A model generated the notes under the pieces. The model had not been told where the DNA came from and did no database searches. It saw only the letters and a list, made by a program, of their open reading frames with translations. A stretch of 58,494 nucleotides of DNA. Source: Gammaproteobacteria bacterium (GTDB lineage Bacteria > Pseudomonadota > Gammaproteobacteria > GCA-001735895). The translations under genes were made by a program, and so were the position numbers. Shown piece after piece: positions 6,883 through 58,494 of this stretch. Numbering within the stretch: position 1 is the stretch's first letter; the number at the start of each line of letters is the position of its first letter. The stretch spans positions 1 through 58,494 of the forward strand of contig JBNKUM010000027.1 of assembly GCA_050298595.1 (NCBI GenBank), in the 5' to 3' direction.

Positions 6883-7641
6883 ACATAACCTCCTGCTGAT
6901 AGAGACAAGATGTTTCTTGATAATAAAGACTATAGATTAATTCGATTGAGCTGCCTTATTCTTTTTTTATAACGTTTTCGAAAAAGTGCCTATTAGCTTA
7001 TCTGGATCGCCCTGTAGATGTATTTAACCACGAAAAATACGAAGATTAATAGATGCTCTTCTCAGTGTGCGCGGTGACCTCAGTGGTTTATTTTTTAATG
7101 GCAGAATCTCAAGAATAGTTCTTAAAAGTAAAGGACAGAATGAAAATATCATGGCCAGGTAAAAAAACAGTATCGATGAAAAGCATGTGCTTCAAGAAAT
7201 GTCAGAGTTTATGGGGTTGATTTTGATGCTCAAATGAGAGGTATAAGTTCGAATATCCTGTTTTTTTGGGATGAAAACTAAGTATAAGCAACTACTTACT
7301 TAGGTCCGATCCGGTATAGCTCCGGTCATGTACTGGCTGACATGCTTTAAGAACCCTGGTCTACAGGTAAACAACAACCCGGCTTTGATCTCTGATAATT
7401 GAGGGTGCACTGAATTTCCTCCGATTAACGACACTTTAATTAAGGAGATGTGTGTAGGGTTAACAGACAGTTGCGTTGGGTAAATTTTTGTTTGAGGCAA
7501 ATGAGCTCTACATTAATCAGGAGTTAGAATCCTGAAAGTGCTTTAGAAGGGGGGGATTAGGCTGGCCAGGATGTTGGTTTTTAGATTCAAAATGAATAGC
7601 TATGGTTTTCTTTGGAGTATGGTAGAGATGATCAAGAGTGT

Positions 7642-7716
7642 CGTACGCTAAATAGCGTACGCTATTTAGCTAATTGTAAGACGGCTGTCCATCGTATAAA
7701 TTTTAGCTATAGCTAA
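7642..7716. promoter_or_regulatory. Palindrome cluster upstream of the giant gene
   Basis: Perfect 24-bp palindrome GCTAAATAGCGTACGCTATTTAGC (7647-7670), overlapping inverted repeat CGTACGCTA-AA-TAGCGTACG (7642-7661), and 14-bp palindrome TTAGCTATAGCTAA (7703-7716). The symmetry is directly visible; a regulatory role is inference. Confidence 0.5.
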
Positions 7717-7967: not shown

Positions 7968-10900
7968 TTGTATAAGGAATTAAAAAGGATTTTTCGCAAC
8001 ACGATTCTGCTTGCGATAATATTTACCGCGTTTGTAGGGAATGTTAGAGCTATTACTGATGTCGATATTCGTACAGAAACCCCGTTAGGTTCCGGTAATA
8101 CTTCTAATTTCATTGCACATATCTCTGATTGTCGTGATCTTGTATCCATTCAGGTAGGTGATAGTAGTCAGCTCACTCCTTTTTCTCCGGCTGAAGCTAA
8201 TCGCAACCTGTCTTCTCCTACTGCTTGTGAAGTTGATTTTCAACTTAATGATAACAGCGCGGCTTCCCCATTGGTACAGCTTGAATTGCTGGATGGCGTA
8301 CAACAAACTCATACAGAACAGTTTTACTTCGAACGGGTTTCCCCAAAAATAAAACTCAGTGGTATAGGTATTAGAGCTGAGGGAAACAGGCAGTTCCTTG
8401 ATGTGACAATCGAGGCTTCTGATGATCTCGACATAAGTTATGTATCCGTTCAGGCGATGGGGATTCGTGCGTCGACTCTAAGATCTGCTGGAGGGGTCAT
8501 CGATGAAGCCAGGTCGAATTCTTTTGCAGATTCAAAAGGCTATATCCGTATCTTTCCCGATAGTGAAGATCAGACCCTATATAATACGTCAATTGAAATT
8601 ACCGCTCCTCTCTCTGCGGAGGTAATTGCCAGTGATGCGTTAGTGTTGCTGGATATGTATGTAGTTGATGCTAGTGGTAACCAGGCATCTCGTTCTGAAA
8701 TAAGATTTACTGGTGATGATGTCAGGGAAGATGTTCAGGGGCTGATCGCTTCCCCACAGAATATTATTTTCTCGAATGCGCTTGAACAGGTGCAGATTAT
8801 ACCCAGTCTTCAGTATCAGTTTAGAGGGCTGGTACCAACACCCGGTGCTGGCCGGGGGATTAGCTACGTTTCTTCTGATCCTGCAAAAGTCCGAGTAACC
8901 GCAGATGGTAGAGTCATTCCACTTGCAGAAACAGGTTCAACGGATGTAATTATTTCAGTAACCTTTAGCGGACAACCTGTTGTTGAAATACCGGTGTCTG
9001 TTGATTACAGTAAAAAACTGGTTGATTTGAAGGTTGATGGCATATCAGATGCAGATAATTTTCAATTGCCGGCATTGAATACTTTCATCCCTTTGCCGCC
9101 TTTATTAGGGGTGTTTGATGATGGTAGTACAGCCCCTTTAACTCCGTTACATAAAATCCAGAAAGTTGTTCCTGCAGGCGCGGAATCTTTACTCATTGTC
9201 GATGATAAACAGGGGCTTAAGGCTACCCTGTCTATTCCAGACAGCACGCCCCTGGCATTGTCGATTTCATTGCTCCAGTACCCTTCAATTGGCACTACAT
9301 TGAATGTGGTTGCGATTGATGCCGCTCCTGAAATTTCTTTTGAAATTGACGGTGTCGCGAAGGTTGGTAATACATTGACCTTAGTGGCAAAAGCCACGGA
9401 TGATGTTGGGGTCGAAAATGTTGCGTTCTGGATGGATGGTATTGTCATTGGCAGACGACTGTCGCCTCCTTATGAATTAACCCTGCCGCTTACAGAAGAG
9501 CTTGAAGGAAGAACATTAAGCTTTAAGGCGGTTACCGTGGATACTGCGGGTCAGGTTACTGAAACAGTCGATCAAGAAATATCTGTATCGGCTAGTTTTG
9601 TACCCCGAGTGCCAGAATTTGATTTTGAGTTACCAATAGACAATCAGCGTGTGATAGAAAAAACACCGTACAGGTTAGCGGTTTCACATCGCCTGGGCGT
9701 CATGCCTCCTGATGTCTATTCAAGTGGGATTTCACTAGTTGAGTTTTTTGCTGATGGTAGAAAAATAGGTGAATCATTTTTCCCGTCTATGGAAGAGCGC
9801 CCAAATGAAACTAATCCAGATGAAAAGGTACTGTTTGAAGTCTGGGCTTTGGAGGCTGAAGCACCAGAAATCTCGACCGCACAGACGTCGCTGGCTATTT
9901 CTGCAAAAATCCATAGTTCAAATGGCGGGCAAAAGGATGCGCCTGCAAAGCTAATTAAAATACTTGAAAACACGGCCCCTTCGGTGGTGATTTTATCACC
10001 GGTGAATGGCAGCATTGCTACGGTGGGTCAGACCGTCAGGGTTTCTGCGCAGATAGCTGATGATACATTAGCAATGGGTACTGAAGTCGAGTTATTGGTT
10101 AATGATGAGGTGGTTTCAAGTCTCAGGTATGAAGATAGTGAAACCCGTTTTAGTAACGCTATTACTCAGCAGACGGTGAGTAGATCATTTGACCTTCCTA
10201 TTGGAAAAGATCTGTTGGGTGAGACTCTGAATTTGAATGTCCGAGCCATCGATTATCATCAAAAAGCAATTACTTCAAGTGTACTCAGGTTACCCGTAAA
10301 AGGTGATCAACCACCCACTGTTGCACTTTCTCATCCGGTAGAAGGTCAACATCTGGTTTCAGGAACGTTATTAGAGATTCGAGCAAATGCAGTGGATGAT
10401 CTGGGCATTACTCGGGTCAATTTTTATGTAAATGACAAACTGGTCGGTTCTGATCAGCGTGCTCCGTATGCAGTTACTTATGAGTTGCCTGACGGAATTA
10501 TCAATGAGCAGCCACTAGGTATATATGCAGAAGCAGAGGATGCTGCAGGTCATATAAGCCGAAGCGTGCTAGTGAATGCAACCCTTGGCAAAGATGAAGA
10601 GCCTCCTGTAATTAACCTGGTGTCACCAGTGGTTAATCAAACGGATGCTGGTGATGATATTGCGGCAGTTGTTGAAAATAGTGATTTGGTAATAAAAGTG
10701 GCTGGCTTTGATAATGTGGGTGTTGTCAAGGTTGATCTGTTTGGTGTGCGAAAGGTTGACGGGAAAGGCTATGAGCTTACCGGCAACGTAGACGGGGATA
10801 ACCCCGATATCCTGAGCGGTGAAGATTTTCCCGTACAACAGATTCCGGGAGTGCTTAATGCTTACTCCTCCCTCAGGCTGGTGTCTACTCCTGCATTTAA

Positions 10901-13900
10901 AGATTCGTCTGGTGTCAGCTATGACCGATATCCAGTTAAAGCGATAGCTTATGACGATATTGGAAATAGCTCTGAGGTATCAGTCATTATCGGTGTCAGC
11001 AAGGATCAGGCACCTGAAATTGTAAAACTGGGTCTCGATAAGCGTGAATATCTTCCACGGGATAGTGTTGATGTTGAGGTGATTGCGAGGGATGATGTTG
11101 GTGTTTCTGCGGTCACGCTAGAGGTCTTTTCTGATGACGGAACCAGGCTTGTTACGATGACTCATGATGCGTCTACTAATCTGGTTCCTGCGCCTGATCT
11201 TGTAGATAGGTTCAGCTTTAGTTTAAGCGAATTAAATTTGCCTAATTCTGCTCAGATACTGACACTTAAAGCTAGTGCGACAGATAATCACGGTCTTATT
11301 TCGACGATATTTGAAAAACCTTTGTCAGTTGTTGCTGACACTACAGGACCGAATGCTGCTATTACATCTCCGACACTTAATACCATTCTGTATGTCGGTA
11401 AAAACTATACCTTTAACTATCGTGTGGTCGATGAATCCCGTATTACCCACATAGGTATAACTGCGAACGGCCAGGCCATTGTTGATAAAAATTTTACCGC
11501 GAATGATTTATCTACTTCGGTCAAAGGAAGTCAAGATTTTGTAGTTACTGCCAATGGCAGTGAATTACTGGTGACCGTCGAAGCGACAGATGAATTTGGT
11601 AAGACTTCCAGCAGTAACTGGCGCTATCAGGTGGAAACTGACCAGCCACCGGTTATCAGTATTCGTACTCCTGCTGCAGGCTCTCGCCTGGTGGAAGGAG
11701 AAGCATTTAGCATCAATGCACTGGTTACGGACGATAGAAAGGTCAGCAGTGTTCATTATATTGTTGTTCATTATGCTGTTGATGATAATGGGGTGTTGCT
11801 GGGTGATGGGGAGTTGCTGGTTGATGAAGCGGCTGATCAGGCTCAGATTCAATTGCTTAATAAAGGTGAGTATGCAGTCGAAAGAATGCGTGTTCCACAT
11901 CGTCCTGAGTCGGGTGTAACCCGAGTGGGTGTTAGAGCAACCGATGATGGAGGAAATACGGTTACTGAATGGCTCGATTTGACGATTCTGGATGATACTG
12001 AAGCTCCTGTGATATCTCTGCAAAAGCCGGATAAAGCTTTCTCAATACAGCCAGGTCAGCAATTTGAATTAAAAGGTACTTCTAATGATAATTTTTATTT
12101 AAATGATCCGGTTGTTGTTATGCTCGATGAAGCAGGGCAGGAGCATACCCTTAACTGGAAGAGATATGGAAGAAGCGAGCGCTTGCAGGAAGTTAGAGTT
12201 GCTAATCCGGGTACTCTTGGGTCTATCATCGTTGGAACTCGTTATCATGTCGACTTTGAAGGTTCAGTGGCTATTCCTGAGGAGTTTTTAATCTATCAGG
12301 GCCAGGTCATGCAGATGTTTCTGCGCACAGAAGACAATGGTATCAACACAGCTGAAACATTAAAAATTCCGGTCACTATTGAGTCTGACACTCAGGCCCC
12401 AGAAATCACTATCGAAAGTCCAGAGTCTATTTTGTATGAGCAACTTGATGCAAAGTTATCATTCAGTATTACCGATGATATAGAAATAGATTCTTATCAG
12501 GCATTTGTTAAGTTTGATAATAGTGATAAGCAACTGGTGAGTTCTGCAATGGCTGTCGGCCTTAAACGGGTCACAGTAGGAAATATTGTTTTCACTCCCC
12601 CACAACCGTTGGCTGATGGCACAGCTACAAGCTTTCATATTATTATCGAAGCGGTAGATACTAGTGGAAATCGGGAGCTCCATAGCGAACTGTTTGAAGT
12701 CAGGGAAGATACGCCACCGCAAGTATCGGTTGAAACCTTAATACCCGAAAAAGGACTGGTGACAGCTGAAACTTTATTTACTACTTTTAAAGTTGAAGAT
12801 GACTTTATTCAGAGTGGTTCTGGTTATAATCAGTTTATGCCTGTGTTCACTTCCTTGAGTGGTATGTCCGATAATGTTACTCGGCAGATAAAGGCAGCAG
12901 CTATCGCATTAACTCCTGATAACCTGGCTGTAATACCTGCTCTATCCGTCACTTATCCTGAGGGTAAGGGCTGGAATGGTTCCCTGCGTTTAGGTACCGT
13001 TCCGAACGAAGATACCTATATGCAGTTTAATGATGGCAAATTAGTAGTTTACCCGCAACCTAAAATGACAGGTGGGCTGATAAGTTTTGATGGTGACAGC
13101 TTCATGGCCAGTTACAGCATTGTTGCCTTTCAACGTGATATTTGTTCTGCTCAGGTGCAGCAGGTGAGTATGGCAACAGATATGGTACTGGATTTGTCAG
13201 CTTACTCGCCTGATGAATATTCATCTATCATTGTTACTCCGCACTTTCTAGCCGGCGGGCCTTCATTTATTAAACAAATTCGTGTTGATTATGAGCGGGT
13301 CGACAGACTTAATACTTTTGATATTGCTGGCCGTAAACACGAGGTCGCAGATTTTTCTCCACGGGTAAGTCTGATGATTCAGGATGACGGACCTGAAACT
13401 GAGCAGGCTTTCATAGAAAGTCGTAAAAACATTGCTCTTAATAATATTTCACAACAGATATCCACGGCTTTGCCAGTACCTCCATCTGCCGCTATAAAGC
13501 ATATAAATTTACTGGCAGTAGTGACTGACAGGCTGAGTTTACAACGAGGCATTCAGGAATCCCCTGTTCTGGCGAAGACCCTGGTGAATCTGGATACCGA
13601 GTCCCCAGTAATCCACGTTGATTCTCCCGCTCAGGGGACAGTATTGCTCCCTGATCAGCGTATTCCTTTGCAGATTAGCCTGGGTGATAATAGCGGTGTT
13701 GTTAAAAGCATAAAACTCTATCAGAACCGTTCAGAATTGTTGCGAGAATTTGGCGGTGTATATCTCGATACTGATTTAACTATTCCCTTCGATGTGCCCC
13801 ATGATTTCAGCTCTGGAGAACTAGAGTTGACAGCGATTGTTGAAGACGAAAGTGGTTATATTAATGAAAGCAGCGTGCGTTATCCGCTAGATACAAATGA

Positions 13901-16900
13901 ACCACCGTTGTTAGAGTTTTCAGCATTTCACAGTTATTTAGTAGATGGAAAATATCAAAAAAATCTGACTGAACCATCACGTGTCAATTATGGTGAATTT
14001 TGGGTAAGACAGGGAGAGCTATTTCAGGTAGACGCAAAGCTAAGTGATGATGCCGGGTTGCAAAGTTTTACAATTTATCGGTTGGATAGAACTGGCAGCA
14101 GGGTAGAGGAAGTTATAGAGCCTCAAGAATATGCGGTAGGTTGCCCTGATCAGCCTTTATTGAGGCAGCAGGAAAATTCAAATATCACCTTCAATCAAGT
14201 TGTAGCAACCGAATACCAGATGGTTTTAGTAGATACCTATGGACATGAGGTAACGCGTAATTTTCTGGTTCACCCTTTAACCAATGTTGTTCCTGAGATA
14301 AGGATAACAGGCCCTGCTGATAACCAGGAGATAGCAGCAGGCACCTACAGAATAAAAGTGGGTATCGTAGCGACCGACGACCGATGGTTAACAAAAAGAG
14401 ATTTGCATGGTGGCAGCAATGCGGATAACGAACCTGTGCGAATTTATGCAAATGGGGTTGCTCTTAAAGTTCTGGACAAGACAGTACATGGTGATGTTGT
14501 CTCTGGTGGGCAGTCGGCTATCGATCAGGCTTATAGAGAGATATATGCTTCAATGAAGGAGAATTATTCTCCTGAGGTAGCAGATGATTTTGCTCATAGT
14601 GGTAACCCTTACAGTATAGAAACGGGCTATGTGCTAGAGATTCCTGCAGGACTGGTCAGGTTTAATGAGCCATTAAAACTGACGGCTTATGTTTATGATA
14701 GTGAAAATGCTGTCGGTAGTGATGAAATAACGCTTAATGTCGTTGCTGATAATATAATACCTGAGCCGGTTGTGCTGAAACCTGAGCCCGGATTTGGTCC
14801 ACCTGAATTTTCAGATTTCACGTTGGATGTTCGGGCCTACGATAATGTGAAAGTTGAAAGAATTTCTCTGCATAGAGCTTATGGTCTGTTAAAAACTGAT
14901 GGCAGTTATGTACAGGGAAATTATGAGTTAATACGCGATATCAATGGAATCCCGTCACAGGATTATGAGCCTGTGACAACGGTAAATATTGATTCGCCAG
15001 TGTATTCACAAAAACTCCATGTAGATCGCTTATATGAAATTCTTGGCGGATTTGCAGGTGTAACATTGGCAGAAGTTGAGCGTTTTGATGTCTGGGTAAA
15101 GGTTACAGCCTATGACGTAGCAAATCAGCAGTCAAGAGAGGTAAGTTACCCTGTTCGAGTCGATGAAAAGCCAACTATAGATATTGTTGAACCGATTGAG
15201 GCGTCAAACGCGGTAGAAAATACTGATCTTTATGTTAATGTGAATGCATTCGATGATGTAGGCATCTCATATATTAAATTAGTGGCTACATATGCCAATG
15301 GTCAGCCAAATTATGAAATGCGACTGCGCCAGCCACCCTATAATTTTTCTGTTCCAACACCGGCTTTTGATGCCAATGTTCCCGCTAATAATCGTATCGA
15401 TATAGCTGTGGAGGCTATCGATACCTACGGCGATGCTTTCGGTGACCTTGATAATCATACGGCACTAGAGAACGTATCAGTTCGCATTGTAGCTGATCAA
15501 CCACCAGTAGTTGCCATAGGTCTGCCACTCGATGATTCAACCATTATAGAAGGGCAGTATTTGCTTGTACAAATCAATGCGATTGATGACGTGGCCGTCG
15601 ATAGAGTGACACTAAATGTTGATGGTTTGAAAGAGGGTGATCGGAGTTTTACTGATTTAACTTTTCCATATGAATTTTTACTGGAAGTGCCTTATGGTCA
15701 GGCTGGTAAAGATCTCAGTCTAACTGCTAGTGTGACTGAAGATAAACAGCAAAATGCCCGTACTATTTCTACTCTTCAGCCTACAGTAATCCATGTGCAG
15801 AGAGATGATGTTTCTCCAGTGGTCAATATAATACAACCAATAACTGATAGTGCGACAGTTATAGAAAGACACTCTTTACCTTACAACCTTGATGTGACTG
15901 ACAACGTAAAAATCGGTTCGGTTCGTGTATCCCTATATGCTGATGCAGATTTAAATGGCGTGTTTGATGATGCTGAAGTGGTTGAAGAAACTATACTCAT
16001 CTCTGCACCCTATAACGGAAGTATAGCGCTACGATCTATAGATGATTATGTCCAGGACAAGGGAAATGTTCCTGATCAGTTGGACATGTTATTCAAGGTA
16101 TTGGCTCGTGATGGAATTGGTAATGAAACAGTAAAATCAATACCTGTCACCATGTTGCGAAATACGCCACCAGAAGTCACTGGAATTCGTGCACTTGATA
16201 ACCGTGGTTTTAGTATGGGTGCAATAGATGAAATAGCAGAAGGTCATGCTCTAGTATTTAATGTATTGGCACAAGATGCAGAAGCGGGTGTCGATAGTGC
16301 TGCACTCTATATCGCTATAGGCTCAGATGAAACTAACCTTAACTTTACATTGTTAGGTGAGGATAGTGCCGCACCGTTTAATTTCCACTACACGGTGCCG
16401 ACAGGAAAAATAGGGGAGAGTATTTATCTTAAGGCACGTGCAAAGGATGTCGATGGATATGAGTCTGAATTGTCTCCCACTTTATTAAAGCTTCTTATAG
16501 TTGAAGATAAACCACCTACCGCTAATATAGTTAAACCAGACAATAATAATTCTGTAAGTATTGATGGACAGAATATTGAAGTTTTTGTTGAGGCTTTTGA
16601 CGACCTGGGGCCAGATGGAATCGATAGAGTTGTATTTTATGTTAATGGGCAGCCTCAAATTAGTGTTTATGAAAACTATTCAGCAGCCACAGGTTCTTTT
16701 GCTCAGCAACATGTTTACCATGCGGAGATACCAGCACCAAAAGGAGTTGATGGATTTACACTCCAGGCCATAGCCTATGATGTTTTAGGACAGTCCGGTG
16801 AGTCACAACTGATCACAGTCGGCCGTATTCGGGATACGGTTATCCCTAAAATAAGTGTTTTAGAACCTTTTAATCACGAAATTCTGACTGCCGCTGAACC

Positions 16901-49856: not shown

Positions 49857-49889
49857 CAACCAATCGAATAGTGAGTTTTGGAGAAATAT

Positions 49890-50696
49890 ATGTTGCGTAG
49901 TTTTATCCTGGTTATATCAGTTAGTGTTTTCCTGGTCTCTTGTAATAAAGAAGATCTGGTTGGAAAAGTTAATGGTCGAGATATATCTCGCACTCAATTT
50001 AATCATTACCTGACATTTAAAAATATTCCACAAGAAGACAAAAAACGCGTCGATATGATGCTAAAAGATTATATGCAACGGGAAGCATTTACTTCATTAA
50101 TTGAAAAATCGAAGGAGTTTGATGCAACACTGATAGAAACCGAGCTGAATGAATTTAAAAAGCAGATTGTGATTAGTAGATATTTTGAAGAGTATCTGAA
50201 GAAAAAGGTTAACGAGGAGGCGGTTAAAAATTATTACAATACCAGGGCCGAAGAATATCAGCGTGAAAAAATTAAAGTAGCGCATATTCTCATACGTACC
50301 AATGACAAAATGAGCGATGTGGAGTTACAGGCTGCATTGACCAAAGCTCAGGAAGCTTATAGTAAAGCTCGGGCCGGTCAGTTATTTGCTGATGTTGCGA
50401 AACAATACTCTGATGATACCGTATCGGCACGCCAGGGAGGAGAGTTGGGCTGGTTGAGTAAAGGAGCCATAGACCCTGTTTTTTCTGCACGAATATTTGA
50501 AACTAAAGCAGGAGAAATTTCAGAACCTTTTAAAACTTCATTTGGTTTCCATGTGGTAAAAGTACTTGAGAGCCCTCAGATTATTAAAATACCATTTGAA
50601 AAAGTAAAGGGGGATATCCTCTATCGTTTACGTCAGCAGGCGAAACAGGCTGAAATGGATCGATTATTGTCACAAGTAGAGATAAGTTATCTATGA
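49890..50696 (+). CDS. Parvulin (PpiC-type) peptidyl-prolyl isomerase lipoprotein, PrsA/SurA-like foldase
   Basis: ATG 49890 follows GGAG. Lipobox FLVS-C, VGKVNGRDIS helical N-domain, and rotamase motifs KVAHILIR, YSDD...GGELGW, DPVF and GEISEPFKTSFGFHVVKV. Confidence 0.92.
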   Translation: MLRSFILVISVSVFLVSCNKEDLVGKVNGRDISRTQFNHYLTFKNIPQEDKKRVDMMLKDYMQREAFTSLIEKSKEFDATLIETELNEFKKQIVISRYFEEYLKKKVNEEAVKNYYNTRAEEYQREKIKVAHILIRTNDKMSDVELQAALTKAQEAYSKARAGQLFADVAKQYSDDTVSARQGGELGWLSKGAIDPVFSARIFETKAGEISEPFKTSFGFHVVKVLESPQIIKIPFEKVKGDILYRLRQQAKQAEMDRLLSQVEISYL

Positions 50697-51562
50697 AAAT
50701 AGTTGTGGCAATGAAATTAATTATATTGTTGACAGCGGTGGTTGCCTGTAAACAGGAATCTGATGGCATTAGCCATATTGAAGCGGGTAATGCTAGTCTT
50801 AATAAAGACCTGGTAGTGGCTAAAGTAGATGATGATTTATTATATCAAAGTCAACTTGACCTGATGATGGACAAGTTAGCCTCTGGACAATCCGAAGAAA
50901 ACAGAGCCAGGCTTAAATCGACTATTTTACAGGGTATGGTTAGAACCAGAGTGTTGGCGAATTTGGCCGAGCAACAGCTAGATGATGATGAGATCAGAAA
51001 AATCAATGCGAAAGTAAAAAATTACAGGGATGAAATACTGGTTAAATCCTATGTGGAAAAAAATATAGTAGTAGAGCCAGTCACTGCAGAAATGATTAAA
51101 CAGTATTATCAGGAACATCTTAATGAATACGCAGAGCAGGGCAGGATTAACTTTGAATTTCTGGTTACTACATCACCCCGACTTGATGATGATATGGTTA
51201 GCCAGGTTATGGCCGAGTTTTCAAAAGCGAAAAATATTGATAACTGGCACTTATATGTTGACACGCTTAAACAAAAAAAAATACCGGTAGAGTTTAACTC
51301 TGTATCGATGCTCCCTGCATCTATCAATAAAGCACTACGTTCTCCTATAGAAAATTTGACTGAAGGTGAGGTTAGTGATCTTGTTTTTGGTGATTATATT
51401 TATATTGTTAAATTAATAAGCCGAGAGCCTGATACTTTTAAGCCACTCAAAGATGTCAGTATGGCAATACGAAAAAAATTAGCTCCGCAAAAATTTAAAC
51501 AAATGCTCACTCAGCATATCGATAAAGCCATGATAAGCAAACAGGTTGAGTATATTCAGTGA
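50693..51562 (+). CDS. Second PrsA-like lipoprotein with a degenerate parvulin domain
   Basis: ATGA overlap with the upstream gene (alternative start 50711). Lipobox VVA-C, VVAKVDD, VTAEMIKQYYQEH and LTEGEVSDLV...YIYIVKL. The two conserved parvulin histidines appear to be absent. Confidence 0.82.
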   Translation: MKIVVAMKLIILLTAVVACKQESDGISHIEAGNASLNKDLVVAKVDDDLLYQSQLDLMMDKLASGQSEENRARLKSTILQGMVRTRVLANLAEQQLDDDEIRKINAKVKNYRDEILVKSYVEKNIVVEPVTAEMIKQYYQEHLNEYAEQGRINFEFLVTTSPRLDDDMVSQVMAEFSKAKNIDNWHLYVDTLKQKKIPVEFNSVSMLPASINKALRSPIENLTEGEVSDLVFGDYIYIVKLISREPDTFKPLKDVSMAIRKKLAPQKFKQMLTQHIDKAMISKQVEYIQ

Positions 51563-51655
51563 TGTCGTTATGAATATGGATGTTATATATCTTTCAAGTT
51601 TTTATCCAATGACCCATGGGCTAGAAATGGCACTGGCAAATCTGGAGTTTTTACA

Positions 51656-54600
51656 ATGAAATTCTATTTTCAGTTACTGTCGTCCCTGGTACTATTGCTG
51701 ACTTCTGTTGTCGTACAGGCTTATGAATTTGATCCGGCTGGAAATTTAGCCTGTTTTTATGATCAACCAAATTACCAGGGGGCAGAATATTGTTACGGGG
51801 TGGGTGATGTTGCTTCTCTGGACTCCCCAATAAAGAACATATTTGAATCGGTTAGGATTCCGCAAAATATCGAAGTGTTTGGTTTTAATTACAGTAATTT
51901 TACCGGCACGATGGAAATCTATTCTGCTGATACAGCAGCAATCGTGAATTTAAATGCAAATCTCGAATCGTTAAAAATATATGACCTTTCGGTGCGTCAG
52001 TTCGATCCCTCAGGTTTATATACCTGTTTTTACACTCAACCTAATTTTGAGGGTGCAGAGTTTTGCTACGGCGTTGGCGATCATGCAGAGTTCGATCCGA
52101 TACTCAAGAACCTTTTCCAGTCGGTCAGAGTCCCGCAAAATATCGAAGTATTTGGCTTTAATTACAGAAACTTTACAGGCACGATGGAAATCTATTCTGC
52201 TGATACTGCGGTACTTGGGAGTTTGAATCAGAATCTGGAGTCATTGAAGATTTATGATCTGTCAGTACGTCAGTTCAATCCCTCAGGCTCAAATACCTGT
52301 TTTTACACTCAACATGATTTTGAGGGTGCTGAATTTTGTTACGGAGTGGGGGAGCATGCAGAGTTAGATCCAATACTCAAGAATTTGTTCCAGTCGGTCA
52401 GAGTCCCTCAAAATATCGAAGTATTTGGCTTTAATTACAGAAACTTTACAGGCACGATGGAAATCTATTCTGCTGATACAGCCTCAATCGTGAATTTAAA
52501 AGCAAATCTCGAATCGTTAAAAGTATATGACCTGTCGGTGCGTCAATTCGATCCCTCAGGTTCAAATACCTGTTTTTATACACAACCCAATTTTGAGGGT
52601 GCAGAGTTTTGTTATGGAATTGGAGATTATGCGCAGTTAGATCCGATGCTCAAGAACCTGTTCCAGTCGGTCAGAGTTCCTCAAAATGTTGAAGTATTCG
52701 GCTTTAATTACAGTTATTTTAACGGCACAAAGGAAATCTATTCTGCAGATGCTGAAGTATTAGGGCGTTTGAATCAGACTCTGGAATCATTTAAAATATA
52801 TAACCTGTCAGTACGTCAGTTCGATCACTCTGGCACAAATACATGTTTTTATACACAACCCAATTTTGAGGGTGCTGAATTTTGCTACGGCGTGGGGGAA
52901 TATGAGCAGATCGATCCGATACTAAGAAATCTGTTCCAGTCGGTCAGAGTTCCTTTAAATACCGAAGTGTTTGGCTTTAATTATAGTAACTTTAATGGTG
53001 CCATAGAACTGTATTCTCAGGATACAGCAGCAATCTCGAGTTTAAATGTCGATCTGGAATCGTTTAAAATATATGACCTTTCTGTGCGTATGTTCGATCC
53101 CGTTGGTTCAAATATCTGTTTTTACACCCAACCCAATTTTGAGGGTGCTGAATTTTGTTACGAAGTGGGGGAGCATGCTGAGTTAGATCCGATACTAAAG
53201 AGCTTGTTCCAGTCGGTCAGAGTTCCCCAAAATATCGAAGTATTTGGCTTTAATTACAGTAACTTTACCGGCACGATGGAAATCTATTCTGCTGATGCTG
53301 CGGTACTTGGGAGTTTGAATCAGACTTTGGAGTCATTGAAGATTTATGACCTGTCAATACGTCAGTTCGATCCCTCAGGCTCAAATACCTGTTTTTACAC
53401 TCAACCCAATTTTGAGGGCGCTGAGTTTTGTTACGAGGCTGGGGAGCATGCAGAGTTCGATCCGATACTCAAGAACCTGTTCCAGTCGGTCAGAGTCCCT
53501 CAAAATATCGAAGTATTTGGTTTTAATTACAGAAACTTTACAGGCACGATGGAAATCTATTCTGCTGATACAGCAGAAATCGTTAATTTAAATACAAATC
53601 TCGAATCGTTAAAAATATATGACCTGTCGGTGCGTCAATTCGATCCTTCAGGTTCATATACCTGTTTTTATACGCAACCCAATTTTGAGGGTGCTGAGTT
53701 TTGTTACGGGGTTGGGGAGCATGCAGAGTTAGATCCGATACTCAAGAACCTGTTCCAGTCGGTCAGAGTCCCTCAAAATACCGAAGTATTTGGCTTTAAT
53801 TACAGAAACTTTACAGGCACGATGGAAATCTATTCTGCTGATACAACAGCAATCGTGAATTTAAATGCAAATCTCGAATCGTTAAAAATATATGACCTGT
53901 CGGTGCGTCAATTCAATCCCTCAGGTTCAAATACCTGTTTTTATACGCAACCCAATTTTGAGGGTGCTGAATTTTGTTACGGGGTTGGGGAGCATGCCCA
54001 GATCAACCCGATTGTCAGAAATTTGTTCCAGTCGGTCAGAGTCCCTTTAAATACCGAAGTGTTCGGTTTTAATTATAGTGACTTTAATGGTGCCAGAGAA
54101 CTGTATTCACAGGATGCGGCAGTAATTGTGAGTTTAAATATCGATCTGGAATCTTTTAAAATTTATGACCTGTCAGTACGTCAATTCGATGCCGCAGGTT
54201 CGAATAGCTGTTTTTATACACAGCTTAATTATCAAGGCGCTGAATTCTGTTATGCAATTGGTGATTATGTTCAACTCGATAAAACTCTGAATAATTTGTT
54301 CCAGTCGCTCAAACTCCCTCAAAATTTTCAAGTCACCGGATACAATTACAGCAATTTTACCGGTACGGCAATTACCTATACCTCAGAAGCAGCTACGCTG
54401 GGCAGTCTGGGTAAAAGTTTAACCTCATTTCAAATCTCATTAAAAAATACTGAACTGGATTCAGATGACGATGGTATTAGCGATTCTTACGAATTACAGT
54501 TGGGAACAGATCCAGCTGATCCTGCAAGTGTTCCAGCTGATTTTGATAGTGATGGAATTCCAGACCAACTTGATGATGATTTAGACGGAGATGGTGTCAC

Positions 54601-57600
54601 AAATAGTGCTGATCTCTATCCTGATGATCCTACTGAGTCCGCAGATTTAGATGGTGATGGTATAGGCGACAACAGCGATACTGACATGGATGGTGATGGG
54701 ATCAATAATGATTATGAGACACAGCTAGGGACAAACCCTGCTGACCCCATAAGTGTACCCGCTGACCTGGACAGTGACGGCATGCCGGATGCACTGGATG
54801 ATGATATTGACGGAGATGGCGTAAATAATCTGATTGATAGCTTTCCGAATGATCCAGCTGAGTCTTCTGACTTAGATGGCGATGGCATAGGCGACAACAG
54901 CGATAGCGATATTGATGGTGATGGTTTTAGTAATGATGAAGAAATTGCTGGAGGAAGTAATCCTAACGACCCAAATAATATACCTGGTGCTAATTTAAGA
55001 GTGTTATTTTCCCTGATCACTCCCCCGCTATCTGATAGCCAGTTTATAGATCTAACAGGGGCTGTTTACGGGGACATTATCGACCGTGTGTATCTCACCT
55101 CTGACCATTATCCTGATACTACCTTTGCGGCGAATATAGTCAACAATAACTGGTCTGCCAGAGTGCCATTAAAGGTAGGTGACAATCTAATCAGAGCCCA
55201 TGTAGAGGGAAACAACAATGAAACGGCCGAAGTCAGCAAAATTTTCCGAAGAAAGGAGCCGCCCCCACTAATTTCCATGCTGTTTGATACACCGCTGAAC
55301 AATAGCCTGGTGAATACTGATAGTATCGTGGTGACTGGACGGATTATTAGTGAAACCATCGTCACTTTGCCTGTGGTTAATGTCAACACTATTGCTGCCG
55401 AGGTTAGCCAGGGTGCAAGTCCGACAGAGTTTGTTTTTAGTGCCGCAGTCAGTTTACAGCAAGGCGCAAACAAGATAACGGCCAGCTCAGTGGTGGCAGG
55501 TGAAAGCCTGCAGGAAGATCTCATCATTAATTATCAGCCGGCTGACACTCAAATTTTACCACCTGTTGTGCATATTTCTTCTCCTCATCCAGGAACGACT
55601 TTGATGACAGATAGTTTCGTTTTAACTATGCAGGCAACTTCAGATGTCGGTCTATCAGCGGTAACCATTAATGGGCAGCCCGAGGTTATAAGCGCTTCCG
55701 GTCAGATCAAAAAAACACTTAATTTTGCCGGTCAATCACAGCTGGATGTCATCATTGTAGTCACGGATAATAAGAATCAGCAGAGTACTTTAAATGCAAG
55801 CTACAACCTGGATGCACTGGCCCCGGTTATACAGGTAGATTCAATGCAACCTTATCCTGCGGAAAATATTGTCACTGATAATCCATATAACCTCTCAGGA
55901 ACTGTGACTGATGCTACGCTGCTGCAATTGACCTTAAATGACAAAGTATTGACCCTGGAACCTACTGCAATTCCGCACCAATATCGCTTCAACACAAACC
56001 TGATGCTATCAGCCGGTGTATTGAGTAGTATTCATTTAACCGCAATAGATGCTGCGGGTAATCAGTCACCTCCCAGAGAATACTTGCTTAAAGCTAACAG
56101 TGATATTCAGGTAAGCTGGATAACACCCGCCGATAAAAGTGTAATTCTGCTACAGGCTCCCGGACAAACACTGGATATAAGTGCCAGATTGAGCAACATC
56201 TCAGGTATAGGAGATGTTCAGCTCGATATCACGGGGCAGGCAGGCACATCATCGGTGACTATGGCGCTGAATACAGATATAGCCAGTGCTCGAATTACAC
56301 TCCCTGATAGTGCAGGAGAATATACCCTGGCACTCAAAGTTCTGGATATTAACAGTCAGCTTCTGACCGCTTCTACTCGTTCAATTACACTGAAGTCGGC
56401 TCAGGCCCTGCCACTTGAAATCGTTAAGCTAACGCCACAGGATGGAGCCACCGATGCTGAGCCGAATGATTTTGTCGCTGTATTTTTTAATAAAGCCATC
56501 GATCTAAATTTATTAGACATTCAGCTGCACGAAACCGTGCACGGTTTCGATTATGTGAATGTTGATCCACCAGGATTAGACAGTATGAATGCCAAGGGTT
56601 ATCAGTTACAGAATGTCAACCGGGACTATGAACCAGTACCGGGAGTGTTTTCACTTTTGCCAAATAACACCACAGCGGTTTTTTACCCTCAACAGGAAAT
56701 GGCCTATGACTCTGATCTTTATGTCACTATAAATTATGATGGTCAGGAGATGGCTCGTAGTCATTTTAAAGTGCGTCCACGCCCGACATTTATTGAGGGG
56801 CTGGTAATGGATAACCTGGGTCAAGCCGTAGCCGGAGTCGAAGTCAGCCTGAGCGATCTAAATCGAGTAACCAAAACCGATTCAGAAGGAAGTTACAGCT
56901 TCGGCTTTGGCGACAGTGCTGAACAGAATATCAGCGGTGGGCTACATAAGCTCAGTATCAATGCCGGACTAAAAGATAACCGGTTTGGCAATATCAACAC
57001 CCAGATAAATTTACAGCAGGGGGCAAAAAACGTAATCCCCAGTTTTACCTTACCGCTACTCAATCGGGAAATACCGTTTGCTTACATTAACAGTCATGCT
57101 ACCCAGGTTTTCAATGGAGGGGAATTGAGCATTGATACACAGCAGGCAAGCTTAGCGTTTCCTGATGGCGCTCAGGAAGGCCCTGTGCATGTACAGTTTT
57201 TACCTGGCTCTAGCCATTTACCACCCGTATTTAAACCCGAGTACATACCTCAGTGGTCGTATAGCGTACAACCTTCTGGCATCAAGGTTGAGGGCAATAT
57301 ATCGCTGGATTTTGCCTTGCCAAAATACCGCCAAAGCTATGAATATGCCCCACAGGAAGGTGAACTGGTTCTTTTACTTGGCAGCAATAGCAATAGCTCT
57401 CAACTGATTCCTGTTGGTGTCGGCGAGGCCATTGCGGGTAATCGGGTGCATAGTGTCGGACAAACACATTTCAATATGCTGGACACTATCGCATACAGCA
57501 TGGTCATGCCAGAGCAGCGACTTGATTTACGGGCCTACCAGCAAGGAGAAATTGATCTGCAACAACTGACCCTCAGGCTGCAAACCTTTACCTACAACCC

Positions 57601-57664
57601 ACCAAAGGACGAAGCTGAAGCCATATCCCGGGCAAAAGCACTACAGGAATTGGGAATTAAATAA
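51656..57664 (+). CDS. Secreted 2002-aa protein: 10x beta/gamma-crystallin-like repeats, TSP3 repeats, Ig-like, Big_5 and carboxypeptidase-regulatory-like domains
   Basis: Signal peptide MKFYFQLLSSLVLLLTSVVVQA. Greek-key-like motifs CFYTQPNFEGAEFCY and SVRVPQNIEVFGFNYRNFTG; DLDGDGIGDNSDxDxDGDG repeats; LTPQDGATDAEPNDFVAVFFNKAID (Big_5-like); IEGLVMDNLGQAVAGVEVSL...TDSEGSYSF. Confidence 0.9.
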   Translation: MKFYFQLLSSLVLLLTSVVVQAYEFDPAGNLACFYDQPNYQGAEYCYGVGDVASLDSPIKNIFESVRIPQNIEVFGFNYSNFTGTMEIYSADTAAIVNLNANLESLKIYDLSVRQFDPSGLYTCFYTQPNFEGAEFCYGVGDHAEFDPILKNLFQSVRVPQNIEVFGFNYRNFTGTMEIYSADTAVLGSLNQNLESLKIYDLSVRQFNPSGSNTCFYTQHDFEGAEFCYGVGEHAELDPILKNLFQSVRVPQNIEVFGFNYRNFTGTMEIYSADTASIVNLKANLESLKVYDLSVRQFDPSGSNTCFYTQPNFEGAEFCYGIGDYAQLDPMLKNLFQSVRVPQNVEVFGFNYSYFNGTKEIYSADAEVLGRLNQTLESFKIYNLSVRQFDHSGTNTCFYTQPNFEGAEFCYGVGEYEQIDPILRNLFQSVRVPLNTEVFGFNYSNFNGAIELYSQDTAAISSLNVDLESFKIYDLSVRMFDPVGSNICFYTQPNFEGAEFCYEVGEHAELDPILKSLFQSVRVPQNIEVFGFNYSNFTGTMEIYSADAAVLGSLNQTLESLKIYDLSIRQFDPSGSNTCFYTQPNFEGAEFCYEAGEHAEFDPILKNLFQSVRVPQNIEVFGFNYRNFTGTMEIYSADTAEIVNLNTNLESLKIYDLSVRQFDPSGSYTCFYTQPNFEGAEFCYGVGEHAELDPILKNLFQSVRVPQNTEVFGFNYRNFTGTMEIYSADTTAIVNLNANLESLKIYDLSVRQFNPSGSNTCFYTQPNFEGAEFCYGVGEHAQINPIVRNLFQSVRVPLNTEVFGFNYSDFNGARELYSQDAAVIVSLNIDLESFKIYDLSVRQFDAAGSNSCFYTQLNYQGAEFCYAIGDYVQLDKTLNNLFQSLKLPQNFQVTGYNYSNFTGTAITYTSEAATLGSLGKSLTSFQISLKNTELDSDDDGISDSYELQLGTDPADPASVPADFDSDGIPDQLDDDLDGDGVTNSADLYPDDPTESADLDGDGIGDNSDTDMDGDGINNDYETQLGTNPADPISVPADLDSDGMPDALDDDIDGDGVNNLIDSFPNDPAESSDLDGDGIGDNSDSDIDGDGFSNDEEIAGGSNPNDPNNIPGANLRVLFSLITPPLSDSQFIDLTGAVYGDIIDRVYLTSDHYPDTTFAANIVNNNWSARVPLKVGDNLIRAHVEGNNNETAEVSKIFRRKEPPPLISMLFDTPLNNSLVNTDSIVVTGRIISETIVTLPVVNVNTIAAEVSQGASPTEFVFSAAVSLQQGANKITASSVVAGESLQEDLIINYQPADTQILPPVVHISSPHPGTTLMTDSFVLTMQATSDVGLSAVTINGQPEVISASGQIKKTLNFAGQSQLDVIIVVTDNKNQQSTLNASYNLDALAPVIQVDSMQPYPAENIVTDNPYNLSGTVTDATLLQLTLNDKVLTLEPTAIPHQYRFNTNLMLSAGVLSSIHLTAIDAAGNQSPPREYLLKANSDIQVSWITPADKSVILLQAPGQTLDISARLSNISGIGDVQLDITGQAGTSSVTMALNTDIASARITLPDSAGEYTLALKVLDINSQLLTASTRSITLKSAQALPLEIVKLTPQDGATDAEPNDFVAVFFNKAIDLNLLDIQLHETVHGFDYVNVDPPGLDSMNAKGYQLQNVNRDYEPVPGVFSLLPNNTTAVFYPQQEMAYDSDLYVTINYDGQEMARSHFKVRPRPTFIEGLVMDNLGQAVAGVEVSLSDLNRVTKTDSEGSYSFGFGDSAEQNISGGLHKLSINAGLKDNRFGNINTQINLQQGAKNVIPSFTLPLLNREIPFAYINSHATQVFNGGELSIDTQQASLAFPDGAQEGPVHVQFLPGSSHLPPVFKPEYIPQWSYSVQPSGIKVEGNISLDFALPKYRQSYEYAPQEGELVLLLGSNSNSSQLIPVGVGEAIAGNRVHSVGQTHFNMLDTIAYSMVMPEQRLDLRAYQQGEIDLQQLTLRLQTFTYNPPKDEAEAISRAKALQELGIK
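51728..54450 (+). repeat. Ten tandem 273-bp (91-aa) intragenic repeats
   Basis: Unit starts at 51728, 52001, 52274 ... 54185, an exact 273-bp period. Internal units are highly similar at DNA level; the first and last are more diverged. Confidence 0.95.
54458..54985 (+). repeat. Duplicated 225-bp (75-aa) thrombospondin type-3-like unit (~2.3 copies)
   Basis: GGCGACAACAGCGATA recurs at 54665 and 54890. The protein pattern YE.QLGT.PADP.SVPAD.DSDG.PD.LDDD.DGDGV.N occurs twice. Confidence 0.8.
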
Positions 57665-58494
57665 ATGAATTCTAAAACAATAAATTCACGCAATATGAAG
57701 ATTAAAGCCCTGTCGCTACTCTCGCTGTGGCTATTGTTGATGCTGCCCGAAACTATTCAGGCATTACCCGGGTTTAACCATGGCTATGTGTATAGTCGGG
57801 CCGCAATTACCAACGAACAGGGTCAATACACCTGGGGCCGATACAACCCCGAGAATGGAGAATACCTGGGTGATATCGCTGTGGCAGGTGACAGTTTAAA
57901 TCCTGCCGAATGGCGCGTTATGTCGGGCGATGTCTATCGCAGTATTATTAAGCAAAAAAGGGATTTACATAAATCACAACCTGATTTAGAACTTAAAAGT
58001 CGCGCTGATTATGAATCATCAGATCTGTTGCTGGCCAATGGGCAGGCAATGACCAACAAGCCAGCGCTATCTGCGACCACCGCCTATGTTAGCATCCTGC
58101 CACAAACCCGGCGATTGATCGATGACCCGCAAAGTCTCATTCTAGCCCAATACCCGGTTAATCCAGACATCAGTGTGGGTGATAATATCGTCTCAATCCT
58201 GTACCAGTATCGTGGTGATGGTATCGGTAATATTCATCTGCAAAGTTCCGATCGCATCGGATTTAAAGCAGCTTTTACCAAAGATAAGGATGGAAATGCA
58301 GTCGCTAGTGCTGAATTCATAAATGTTAACAAATTTCGTTCTGGGGAATACACGCCAGTTTCACCGTTAGAAGGTGTTGTGATCGAAAGTGCCCAAAAAC
58401 CTGGCGGAGGTATCACCGATGAAACGGGGCATTACTCTGCGCTTTGGCTATACCCGGCCTGCCCGATATTTTCTATGGAGTATTCTAATAAATT
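57665..58494 (+). CDS. Secreted hypothetical protein (N-terminal 276 codons; runs off the window)
   Basis: ATG immediately follows the upstream TAA (TAAATG) and the frame stays open to the end. It reads MNSKTINSRNMKIKALSLLSLWLLLMLPETIQA-LPGFNHGYVYSRAAITNEQGQYTWGRY...SPLEGVVIESAQKPGGGITDETGHYS. Absent from the ORF track, probably because no stop codon is in view. Confidence 0.85.
   Translation, partial: MNSKTINSRNMKIKALSLLSLWLLLMLPETIQALPGFNHGYVYSRAAITNEQGQYTWGRYNPENGEYLGDIAVAGDSLNPAEWRVMSGDVYRSIIKQKRDLHKSQPDLELKSRADYESSDLLLANGQAMTNKPALSATTAYVSILPQTRRLIDDPQSLILAQYPVNPDISVGDNIVSILYQYRGDGIGNIHLQSSDRIGFKAAFTKDKDGNAVASAEFINVNKFRSGEYTPVSPLEGVVIESAQKPGGGITDETGHYSALWLYPACPIFSMEYSNK

Follow-up and report, generated by a model that had tools for sequence, protein, structure and literature searches.

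Rhs/YD toxins, among them type VI secretion system (T6SS) effectors of the PAAR-Rhs kind and WapA of Bacillus and Streptococcus, combine RHS repeats, a DUF6531 domain and an Rhs-associated core with a variable C-terminal toxin and an adjacent immunity gene, and they are known for orphan C-terminal (CT) modules and for tip swapping in close strains. The Rhs-associated core ends in a DPxGL motif, the site of C-terminal self-cleavage. The present analysis concerns a gammaproteobacterial locus on a stretch of 58,494 nucleotides (JBNKUM010000027.1; one complete contig, G000:C27, hereafter called the window), in which a gene resembling these toxins in each of these respects (gene 5) lies behind genes for an exported protein of 13,962 amino acids (aa; gene 1, the giant), two parvulin-type lipoproteins (genes 2 and 3, encoding PPI1 and PPI2) and an adhesin-like protein (gene 4). 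Taken by itself, gene 5 is a further member of the known Rhs toxins; we take the locus as a whole, at somewhat better than even confidence, for a Sec-dependent polymorphic-toxin system that has a giant protein as its scaffold.

Gene 5 departs from the described Rhs toxins in its N-terminus and in its company. WapA reportedly bears a Sec signal (PMC12704120), as does gene 5, whereas here the organism is Gram-negative and an outer membrane must be crossed. In place of the PAAR domain or the cell-wall-binding repeats of PAAR-Rhs and WapA proteins, gene 5 has an unnamed domain of ~940 aa (the N-domain), which also carries non-Rhs ends and is constantly linked to the giant, two parvulins and gene 4. 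Delivery of gene 5 by a T6SS was considered and rejected: no PAAR family was found in the N-terminal parts, which bear a Sec signal instead, no PAAR/VgrG context was seen, and the T6SS genes lie on other contigs, with TssC genes on contigs C26 and C94, away from the cassette. Zhang et al. (2012; PMC3482391, available part) list signal-peptide-bearing Rhs toxins under ‘T2SS’ (type II secretion system), and the first 300,000 characters of that paper contain none of the words ‘parvulin’, ‘PPIase’, ‘LVIVD’ or ‘crystallin’. Five secretin genes, like the two TssC genes, are located on other contigs of the present genome, and a general T2SS is therefore available, with no tie to the cassette.

Other systems share particular features with the locus. 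Contact-dependent inhibition (CDI; CdiB/CdiA/CdiI, a type V secretion system) also employs a very long beta-rich exoprotein with a polymorphic tip and an immunity gene, and its stick-like presentation of a toxin serves as our working analogy; in the cassette, by contrast, the toxin is on a protein separate from the giant and no dedicated transporter is encoded, and no TpsB family or haemagglutinin-type repeats were reported by Pfam in the window, in the giant or in the first 20 kb of contig C12 (C12:1-20000), on which gene 5 continues. Repeats-in-toxin (RTX) adhesins of the type I secretion system (T1SS), such as LapA, SiiE and MpIBP, lack an N-terminal signal peptide and carry RTX repeats and a secretion signal at the C-terminus, with ABC/MFP genes next to them. 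The giant resembles them as a megadalton-range, Ca-binding protein rich in Ig-like domains, with a predicted place on the surface, and differs in its N-terminal Sec signal and in a non-repetitive architecture that is collinear over ~10,800 aa between families; no RTX family was found in it with Pfam, and no ATP-binding cassette (ABC), membrane fusion protein (MFP) or TolC genes lie nearby. Tc complexes and teneurins have an Rhs/YD shell around a self-cleaved toxic C-terminus and transthyretin-like domains next to the shell protein, as is predicted here, whereas the cassette has Sec signals and different accessory proteins; no TcA, TcB or SpvB family was detected in the five proteins (E<=0.01), and no Tc chain appeared among the listed fold matches of the N-domain. 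The giant-gene loci of Omnitrophota place giant exported proteins near a conserved Rotamase_2 peptidyl-prolyl isomerase (PPIase), according to the available part of that report (West-Roberts et al., 10.1101/2023.11.21.568195). As described there, they also contain a T2SS/type IV pilus-like system of >10 subunits and PilZ genes, which the cassette lacks, they have no N-domain effector gene, and they belong to a different phylum and differ in domain content. A first-pass annotation, made from the letters of the window, had put the locus forward as an undescribed system, and the literature searched, which excluded subscription journals and supplements, yielded no account of either the cassette or the N-domain.

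The Rhs toxin gene, its N-domain and the conserved cassette

Five plus-strand genes run from position 7968 to the end of the contig, all with N-terminal export signals and with intergenic gaps, in order, of 33, -4, 93 and 0 nt, so that the co-directional layout given by the first-pass annotation is confirmed. Gene 5 is open at the end of the window. The last 141 bp are identical to the first 141 bp of contig C12, this overlap is unique in the assembly, the reading frame continues across the junction to C12:8515, and gene 5 homologues from two other genomes align unbroken across it. Gene 5 thus continues on C12, giving a cluster of ~59.5 kb when the next gene is included:

7968..49856, + strand: gene 1, giant exported protein, 13,962 aa (open reading frame, ORF, from TTG 7968)
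49890..50696, + strand: gene 2 (PPI1), parvulin-type lipoprotein (ORF, Rotamase_3, lipobox)
50693..51562, + strand: gene 3 (PPI2), degenerate-parvulin lipoprotein, with a 4-nt overlap with gene 2 (Rotamase_2, lipobox)
51656..57664, + strand: gene 4, exported protein, 2,002 aa (N-terminal head variable, last ~1,050 aa conserved)
57665..58494, + strand: gene 5, first 276 codons, signal peptide and start of the ~940-aa N-domain
C12:2-8515: remainder of gene 5, comprising the rest of the N-domain, DUF6531, 25 RHS repeats, Rhs-associated core, hydrophobic Gly-rich stretch and AHH-like tip
C12:8538-9068: DUF4303 gene, behind gene 5

The complete gene 5 product of ~3,067 aa consists of a signal peptide, the ~940-aa N-domain, DUF6531, RHS repeats, the Rhs-associated core, a hydrophobic Gly-rich stretch and the tip, in that order. 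Its RHS repeats are matched by PF05593 (E 1.2e-140, 25 stretches) and by YD_repeat_2x (TIGR01643, 18 stretches), and its core by Rhs_assc_core (TIGR03696) at 63.8 bits, with a cut-off of 32.5. The core ends in ...YDPDTGRF...YVDEDGH, a variant of the DPxGL ending that is canonical (...DPLGL) in the homologue from G288, a genome of another family; gene 5 accordingly carries an Rhs-associated core with a predicted self-cleavage motif. The tip has a weak match to AHH nucleases (E 0.024), and the gene 22 nt 3' of gene 5 encodes a DUF4303 protein (66.4 bits). In the available part of a 2026 preprint on Stenotrophomonas Rhs effectors (10.64898/2026.07.13.738213), tips and their cognate immunity proteins are listed in parallel (‘respectively’), and AHH nucleases and DUF4303 each occupy the second place. 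The first-pass annotation had suggested reading the downstream contig for outer-membrane barrel, T2SS or RHS/YD genes; the RHS/YD gene proved to be gene 5 itself, with the DUF4303 gene behind it, and no barrel was found in C12:1-20000.

Comparison with relatives reveals the variability of the tip. G011, a genome of the same genus, has a second copy of gene 5 (L029) that shares 88.6% identity with it along 2,363 aa, a stretch that includes the Rhs core and the hydrophobic region; the last ~150 aa of the copy are unrelated to those of gene 5, and the small ORFs downstream differ too. The G288 homologue ends in a different, hydrophobic tip, which is followed by a small hydrophobic ORF and orphan RHS-CT modules. 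These comparisons show gene 5 to be, as judged from its domains, an Rhs polymorphic toxin whose tip and small downstream genes are swapped between close relatives, and the combination of a variable C-terminal tip with a predicted immunity-type gene next to it is found here. The orphan RHS-CT array in G288 occupies about 280,900-287,300 of contig C1 (L020-L021), and each module in it stands between a signal-like ORF of ~150 aa on the 5' side and a hydrophobic ORF of ~100 aa on the 3' side.

The N-domain has no Pfam or NCBIfam family, and where its proteins are named in the sources they are called ‘hypothetical protein’. Proteins sharing it are 62-64% identical to the window over the N-domain in G011 (contig C156) and about 51-56% in a second genome (G006), and both are unrelated to gene 5 after residue ~940; the former has a 175-aa tail and is adjoined by a separate gene with weak likeness to DUF900 hydrolases, and the latter has a fused DUF900-like region. 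A phmmer search with the 940 aa against 1.84 billion representatives returned 600 proteins at E<=1e-3, of which 461 reached E<=1e-10 and 319 reached E<=1e-30; the family amounts to 600 clusters at 50% identity. Matches to the whole domain stand at the protein N-terminus in nearly all such rows listed, 112 of 127 full-length representatives possess a hydrophobic stretch at the N-terminus, and protein lengths cluster near 1,100, 1,400-1,900, 2,000-2,300 and 2,700-3,350 aa.

What follows the N-domain is diverse. Among 24 representatives surveyed with Pfam, the C-termini comprised Big_1/Invasin_D3/Laminin_G (12), DUF900 or Abhydrolase_6 (three), RHS (two, one also with a Tle1-like phospholipase domain) and Peptidase_M15_3 (one), and six had no match; no Pfam family had its best stretch within the first 1,000 residues. 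Pairwise comparison of 49 proteins of 1,950-2,400 aa found likeness in 935 of 1,176 pairs for the part that follows the N-domain, and in only 182 of 1,176 for the last 300 aa; a PD-(D/E)xK-like motif was seen by eye in one tail only. The N-domain is shown by these comparisons to be a separate module, predicted to be of a trafficking type, that elsewhere carries other effector-like ends.

Structure prediction gave no name to this module. An AlphaFold2 (AF2) model, made with a 24-row alignment (A1), has an all-beta multi-sandwich body (mean predicted local distance difference test, pLDDT, 76.8; predicted template modelling score, pTM, 0.74). The top Foldseek rows were alpha2-macroglobulins at template modelling (TM) scores of 0.07-0.08, and VIA searches with the model gave matches to single beta-sandwiches, including transthyretin-like (TTR-like) domains at Z of about 7; the match to the TTR region of teneurin has Z 7.2 over 81 residues. 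No structural counterpart of the whole domain stood among the rows listed by Foldseek and two VIA runs, and an ESM Atlas search produced no usable match; with only single-sandwich matches, no fold name is given to the whole N-domain. The ~1,100-aa class (e.g., L010:5479-8805:-) ends in a conserved Asp/Asn-rich domain of ~170 aa (residues ~940-1109 of the A1 consensus), and the model of this end domain resembles the Ca-binding Ig-like middle domain of peptidylarginine deiminases (PAD), the VIA search with tail 935-1109 reaching Z 9.0.

The N-domain gene is embedded in a recurrent cassette. Searches with gene 3 located the cassette in two of the 13 other same-genus genomes but in no genome among 47 further relatives, and the N-domain occurs in two of 400 other genomes of a class sample. 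All three same-genus loci contain, in this order, the giant's C-terminus, PPI1, PPI2 and gene 4, with gene 5 wherever the contig reaches, and G288 has the complete set, in which a giant of 12,707 aa is followed by products of 293, 287, 2,351 and 2,007 aa. A pattern scan with one genome per species yielded 70 loci, labelled as Pseudomonas-group genera, Shewanella, Colwellia, Pseudoalteromonas, Ca. Thiodiazotropha and several Desulfobacterales, with further labels of Hahella, Zooshikella, Reinekea, Saccharospirillum, Bermanella, Thalassolituus and Neptuniibacter and a partial match in Blastopirellula. Symbionts are among the labelled carriers (including Ca. Thiodiazotropha, Endozoicomonas and Ca. 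Endobugula).

Among the 43 public loci with at least 9 kb of sequence upstream of gene 5, 30 have gene 4 and both PPI genes on the same strand, one has gene 4 and PPI2, seven have gene 4 only and five have none of these. The conserved part of gene 4 therefore precedes gene 5 in 38 of 43; in the seven gene-4-only loci, gene 4 is long or another gene is inserted, and loci with 3-9 kb upstream have gene 4 in 15 of 17 cases. The N-terminal 600 aa of the giant match in all five further genomes searched, upstream of the PPI genes and at the distance expected for a 12,000-aa gene, with open frames of 12,002, 11,998, 12,510 and 12,682 aa in four of them. In nearly every case, then, the gene with the N-domain directly follows gene 4, the pair of parvulin lipoprotein genes and a gene of 12,000-14,000 codons, and the conserved synteny anticipated for the giant and the parvulin pair by the first-pass annotation extends across many genera (30 of 43 loci).

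Comparison of seven genomes revealed no conserved neighbour upstream of the giant, save one ORF pair common to two, and excluded a conserved upstream partner such as a barrel or regulator; a conserved sixth gene was rejected in the same way, since the genes 3' of gene 5 are unrelated between loci. With nothing conserved 5' of the giant or 3' of gene 5, the unit consists of the five genes together with tip-linked genes that vary. Neither the window nor C12:1-20000 contains a T1SS, TpsB or barrel gene, in agreement with the first-pass annotation, which had seen no such exporter.

The giant, the parvulin pair and gene 4

The giant begins at TTG 7968, which is preceded by an AAGGGG Shine-Dalgarno-like run, alternative starts being ATG 7941 and TTG 7875. 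Pfam scans, carried out on the protein in thirds and as 28 overlapping 600-aa tiles, divide it as follows, with the two parts of gene 4 given below:

about 7968-8051, + strand: Sec signal peptide of the giant
9348..17267, + strand: N-terminal third, ~3,000 aa, an Ig-like array of Big_7, DUF4625 and Big_13 (tiles 1-6)
16968..30767, + strand: middle, ~4,500 aa, LVIVD beta-propeller regions alternating with Big_5 and IPT/TIG (tiles 7-15)
30768..39467, + strand: ~2,900 aa nearly without Pfam match, with sporadic Big_7, collinear with the G288 giant
39468..49853, + strand: C-terminal quarter, ~3,400 aa, repeated TSP3, Big_7 and CarboxypepD_reg (transthyretin-like), unnamed globular modules and a NIDO-like stretch
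51863..54252, + strand: head of gene 4, a 273-bp unit repeated in tandem 8.8 times and encoding beta/gamma-crystallin-type repeats (Tandem Repeats Finder, TRF; Crystall_3, 166 bits, 8 stretches)
54506..57661, + strand: gene 4 conserved part, with TSP3, some six Ig-like sandwiches, one transthyretin-like domain, one beta domain and a tail of three helices (alignment A2, AF2 model)

Big_7 reaches 186 bits over six stretches in the first third, LVIVD, TIG and Big_5 all exceed their Pfam cut-offs, and a Big_1 domain lies near 38,664-38,883. The protein is acidic (D+E 13.1%, K+R 5.9%). Its alignment with the G288 giant is a single high-scoring segment pair of 11,105 columns at 34% identity, covering residues 11-10,870, so that the giant's parts stand in a fixed order and do not make up a loose array of repeats; collinearity stops at residue 10,870, and the TSP3-rich last quarter is the least conserved part. 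Within that quarter, at 40968-47267, stretches of ~250 aa running from CarboxypepD_reg to the next TSP3 run are globular and have no Pfam family, and the NIDO-like stretch is just above its cut-off. In Ectopseudomonas oleovorans (G437:C1:550157 onward, the record behind L039), ~42.8 kb separates the start of the giant from the PPI genes, yet its frame stays open for only 4,438 aa, and a gene interruption or sequence errors may be involved.

Parvulin-type foldases provide the closest parallels for genes 2 and 3. The parvulin domains of PpiD and of SurA P1 are degenerate and probably non-catalytic, and PPI2 resembles them; PPI1 is comparable to PrsA, a lipoprotein with an intact parvulin domain. 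PPI1 and PPI2 differ from PrsA, SurA, PpiD and EpsD in that their genes are paired and dedicated to the cassette, of which they are a constant component. PPI1 matches Rotamase_3 (108.2 bits) and Rotamase (96 bits), and all 34 homologues possess both active-site histidines. The only Pfam match of PPI2 is Rotamase_2 (36.5 bits, cut-off 27); both of its catalytic histidines are replaced (by E and Y in this genome), and in 31 homologues the two are never retained together. Since the histidines are kept in one protein and lost in the other, the pair consists of one probable isomerase, PPI1, and one protein, PPI2, that is probably a chaperone and not an isomerase. The two co-encoded PPIases of the first-pass annotation are thereby reduced to one, PPI1 (34 of 34), PPI2 having lost both residues in 31 of 31 loci. 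An assignment of PPI2 to the EpsD family of PPIases, known from PEP-CTERM/exosortase loci, was rejected (45.9 bits against a TIGR02925 cut-off of 108.9); the best NCBIfam matches of the two proteins are PrsA/SurA/PpiD-type models and EpsD, all far below the equivalog cut-offs. With PADLOC only two marginal matches appeared, at E 0.0036 and 0.00073, each of them to a parvulin protein; the other four proteins scored had none.

Gene 4 combines a constant and an exchangeable part. Its last ~1,050 aa have a mean column identity of 39% in an alignment of 22 sequences (A2), and the AF2 model of this part (me32fa3c01fc1; pLDDT 83.5, pTM 0.42) includes a domain, at residues 760-852, whose closest match is the teneurin TTR domain (Z 11.4, root-mean-square deviation 1.6 A, 82 residues). 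The heads vary by genome, with pAdhesive_15, Big_9 and He_PIG in G288 and dockerin-like, MAM-like or TSP_3 domains elsewhere, and a lipobox replaces the plain signal peptide in at least five of 29 complete N-termini. The DxDxDG, Big_5 and carboxypeptidase-regulatory-like modules that the first-pass annotation assigned to both the giant and gene 4 are borne out for TSP3_bac, the DxDxDG repeats (14 stretches in the giant, three in gene 4), and for CarboxypepD_reg; Big_5 is clear in the giant and falls below the Pfam cut-off in gene 4 (20.7 against 23.6 bits). Many gene 4 homologues (L033, L034, L036, L038, L042, L046, L059, L063, L065, L071, L073, L075, L082 and others) display a Cys motif, C-x-x-V/L-F-x-x-G-L-Q-x-H, directly after the signal peptide, which is absent from gene 4 of the window. 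No Pfam family covers this motif, and a suspected likeness to another protein family was dropped for want of Pfam support.

Signal peptides and lipoboxes were judged by eye from the translations, which confirmed the three Sec and two lipoprotein signals of the first-pass annotation. The Sec-type signal of the giant ends ...RNTILLAIIFTAFVGNVRA, followed by ITDV; that of gene 4 is MKFYFQLLSSLVLLLTSVVVQA, followed by YEF; that of gene 5 ends ...KIKALSLLSLWLLLMLPETIQA, followed by LPG; and the lipoboxes are FLVSC (PPI1) and AVVAC (PPI2). All five products would thus cross the inner membrane by Sec and both lipoproteins would remain in the envelope, their +2 residues, Asn and Lys, suggesting the outer membrane by the E. 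coli rule. A terminator scan found no terminator-like site in the three short gaps; the overall counts of the promoter and terminator scans were at chance level.

Several features of the surroundings were noted. Two overlapping perfect palindromes, GTACGCTA-AA-TAGCGTAC and TAGCGTACGCTA, lie at 7639-7671, ~300 nt 5' of the giant start in a 1.1-kb intergenic region, and could be a regulator binding site. Beyond this region, a diguanylate cyclase gene (7TMR-DISMED2/7TMR-DISM/GGDEF; 5005-6882, minus strand) is divergent from the giant gene, and no homologue of it was found upstream of the giant in six other genomes. On the other side, a few kb past the Rhs/immunity pair on C12 (L003), two PEP-CTERM proteins, one with GEVED, are encoded at 10508-11260 and 12665-13393 (minus strand), and a 903-aa M50-peptidase-domain protein at 15243-17954 (plus strand).

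A proposed delivery system and competing explanations

In the proposed system, PPI1 and PPI2 would fold or hold the emerging chains, which are very long, contain proline and are rich in beta structure. With its Ig-like domains, LVIVD propellers and TSP3 modules, the giant would make up a scaffold stiffened by Ca, extracellular or spanning the envelope; gene 4 would join it through the conserved TSP3-Ig-TTR part and offer the variable adhesin-like head to a target; and the N-domain of gene 5 would dock the effector on the assembly. On contact, the Rhs shell would free the C-terminal piece produced by self-cleavage; passage of this piece over the target membrane would be aided by the conserved hydrophobic Gly-rich stretch, and cells without a DUF4303-type immunity protein would then fall to the nuclease tip. 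The producer's outer-membrane step would be encoded outside the cassette. A bolder version, which we advance tentatively and regard as possible rather than probable, is that such loci represent a new class of contact-dependent effector delivery apparatus in diderms, with a Sec-exported, collinear scaffold of ~1.5 MDa that a dedicated pair of parvulins matures, gene 4 as an exchangeable adhesin on it, exchangeable effectors attached via a new ~940-aa loading domain and an outer-membrane route outside the numbered secretion systems.

A number of observations weigh against a toxin system. Its assembly, surface location, foldase role, Ca dependence and killing are all read from sequence features. 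The AHH match of the gene 5 tip is under the Pfam cut-off, an RHS region is present in only 16 of the best 150 N-domain proteins, and the commonest N-domain class (Big_1, LamG and ~700 aa) has no recognised Pfam toxin domain. The N-domain occurs without the cassette in five of the 43 loci, although three of these are partial matches, and the giant frame of E. oleovorans is open for only 4,438 aa and may be broken. The patchy distribution of the cassette (two of 13 same-genus genomes, two of 400 in the class sample) has little phylogenetic power, though it fits an accessory weapon. No immunity gene is conserved downstream across loci, as expected of polymorphism and equally of a protein that needs no immunity. 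Finally, no outer-membrane exporter is encoded in the cassette, leaving a 1.5-MDa Sec substrate without a known route to the surface.

The main rival, which we consider unlikely but serious, is that the cassette builds no weapon but a giant adhesive or matrix structure, which would hold the cell to particles, to algae, to hosts or to sister cells; the N-domain would then be structural, its C-termini would be displayed enzymes or lectins, and the Rhs protein would be a secondary acquisition anchored there. The domains of the giant (Ig-like arrays, TIG, LVIVD, TSP3) and the pAdhesive_15, dockerin-like and MAM-like heads of gene 4 are of adhesin type, and Big_1/LamG ends are commoner than RHS among N-domain proteins. 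The genome paper of S. degradans proposed algal binding for acidic, secreted, Ca-binding ‘megaproteins’ (PMC2386152, available part), a description that would also suit the giant. The GGDEF gene divergent from the giant would also suit such a role in this genome, but it is not conserved as a neighbour. An adhesive structure accounts poorly for a tip that has changed, together with the ORFs downstream, on a background of 88.6% identity, or for the orphan RHS-CT modules in G288, the Tle1-like lipase, M15 peptidase and hydrolase ends, the immunity-type gene behind gene 5 and the last 300 aa that vary even within the LamG class. Tip swaps, orphan modules, enzyme ends, an immunity-type gene and variable tails are marks of conflict systems, not of matrix proteins. 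The first-pass annotation had offered adhesion, a sheath or matrix and a contact apparatus side by side; with an Rhs toxin recognised in gene 5, an immunity-type gene behind it and many effector-like C-termini on the N-domain elsewhere, the contact apparatus is now favoured over the sheath or matrix.

The remaining alternatives are weaker. A complex resembling Tc toxins or teneurins and directed at eukaryotic cells, with gene 5 in the role of TcB-TcC and gene 4 or the giant in the receptor-binding or translocating ‘A’ role, appears improbable. It would draw on the Rhs shell of gene 5 with its predicted self-cleaving core, on the symbionts among the carriers (Ca. Thiodiazotropha, Endozoicomonas, Ca. 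Endobugula) and on the TTR-like domain of gene 4, whose model is nearest that of teneurin (Z 11.4; the gene 5 N-domain is weaker, Z 7.2 over 81 residues), although this match concerns one common beta-sandwich. No SpvB, TcdB mid-N/mid-C, VRP1 or TcA-type family was found in the five proteins at E<=0.01, and all five have Sec signals, which to our knowledge Tc components lack; bacteria would be the fitting targets for the predicted nuclease, lipase and peptidoglycan-peptidase tips, which have immunity-type genes adjacent to them. A chance neighbourhood of one large adhesin gene, two genes for periplasmic chaperones of general function and an Rhs toxin island unrelated to them, all without common function, is strongly disfavoured by synteny and very improbable indeed, given an order and orientation kept in 30-38 of 43 loci in many genera, Desulfobacterota included, a giant in five of five genomes examined, gaps that are small or overlapping, and in PPI2 a specialised degenerate parvulin that accompanies the cassette.

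Meaning for bacterial giant genes and polymorphic toxins

If the locus is indeed a Sec-dependent polymorphic-toxin system, a function would be provided for some of the longest bacterial genes (12,000-14,000 codons), which are present in genomes of cultured Pseudomonas-group bacteria, Shewanella, Colwellia and Hahella-type bacteria and of sulfur-oxidising symbionts, and a Sec-dependent mode based on a giant scaffold would be added to the ways in which Gram-negative bacteria handle polymorphic toxins. The cassette is found in many marine and soil bacteria, and the N-domain family marks new candidate effector genes with Rhs, lipase-like, peptidoglycan-peptidase and nuclease-like ends. The system also raises the question of how a 1.5-MDa Sec substrate leaves the periplasm in the absence of a dedicated exporter. 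Several carriers are cultured, and these predictions are open to ordinary genetics.

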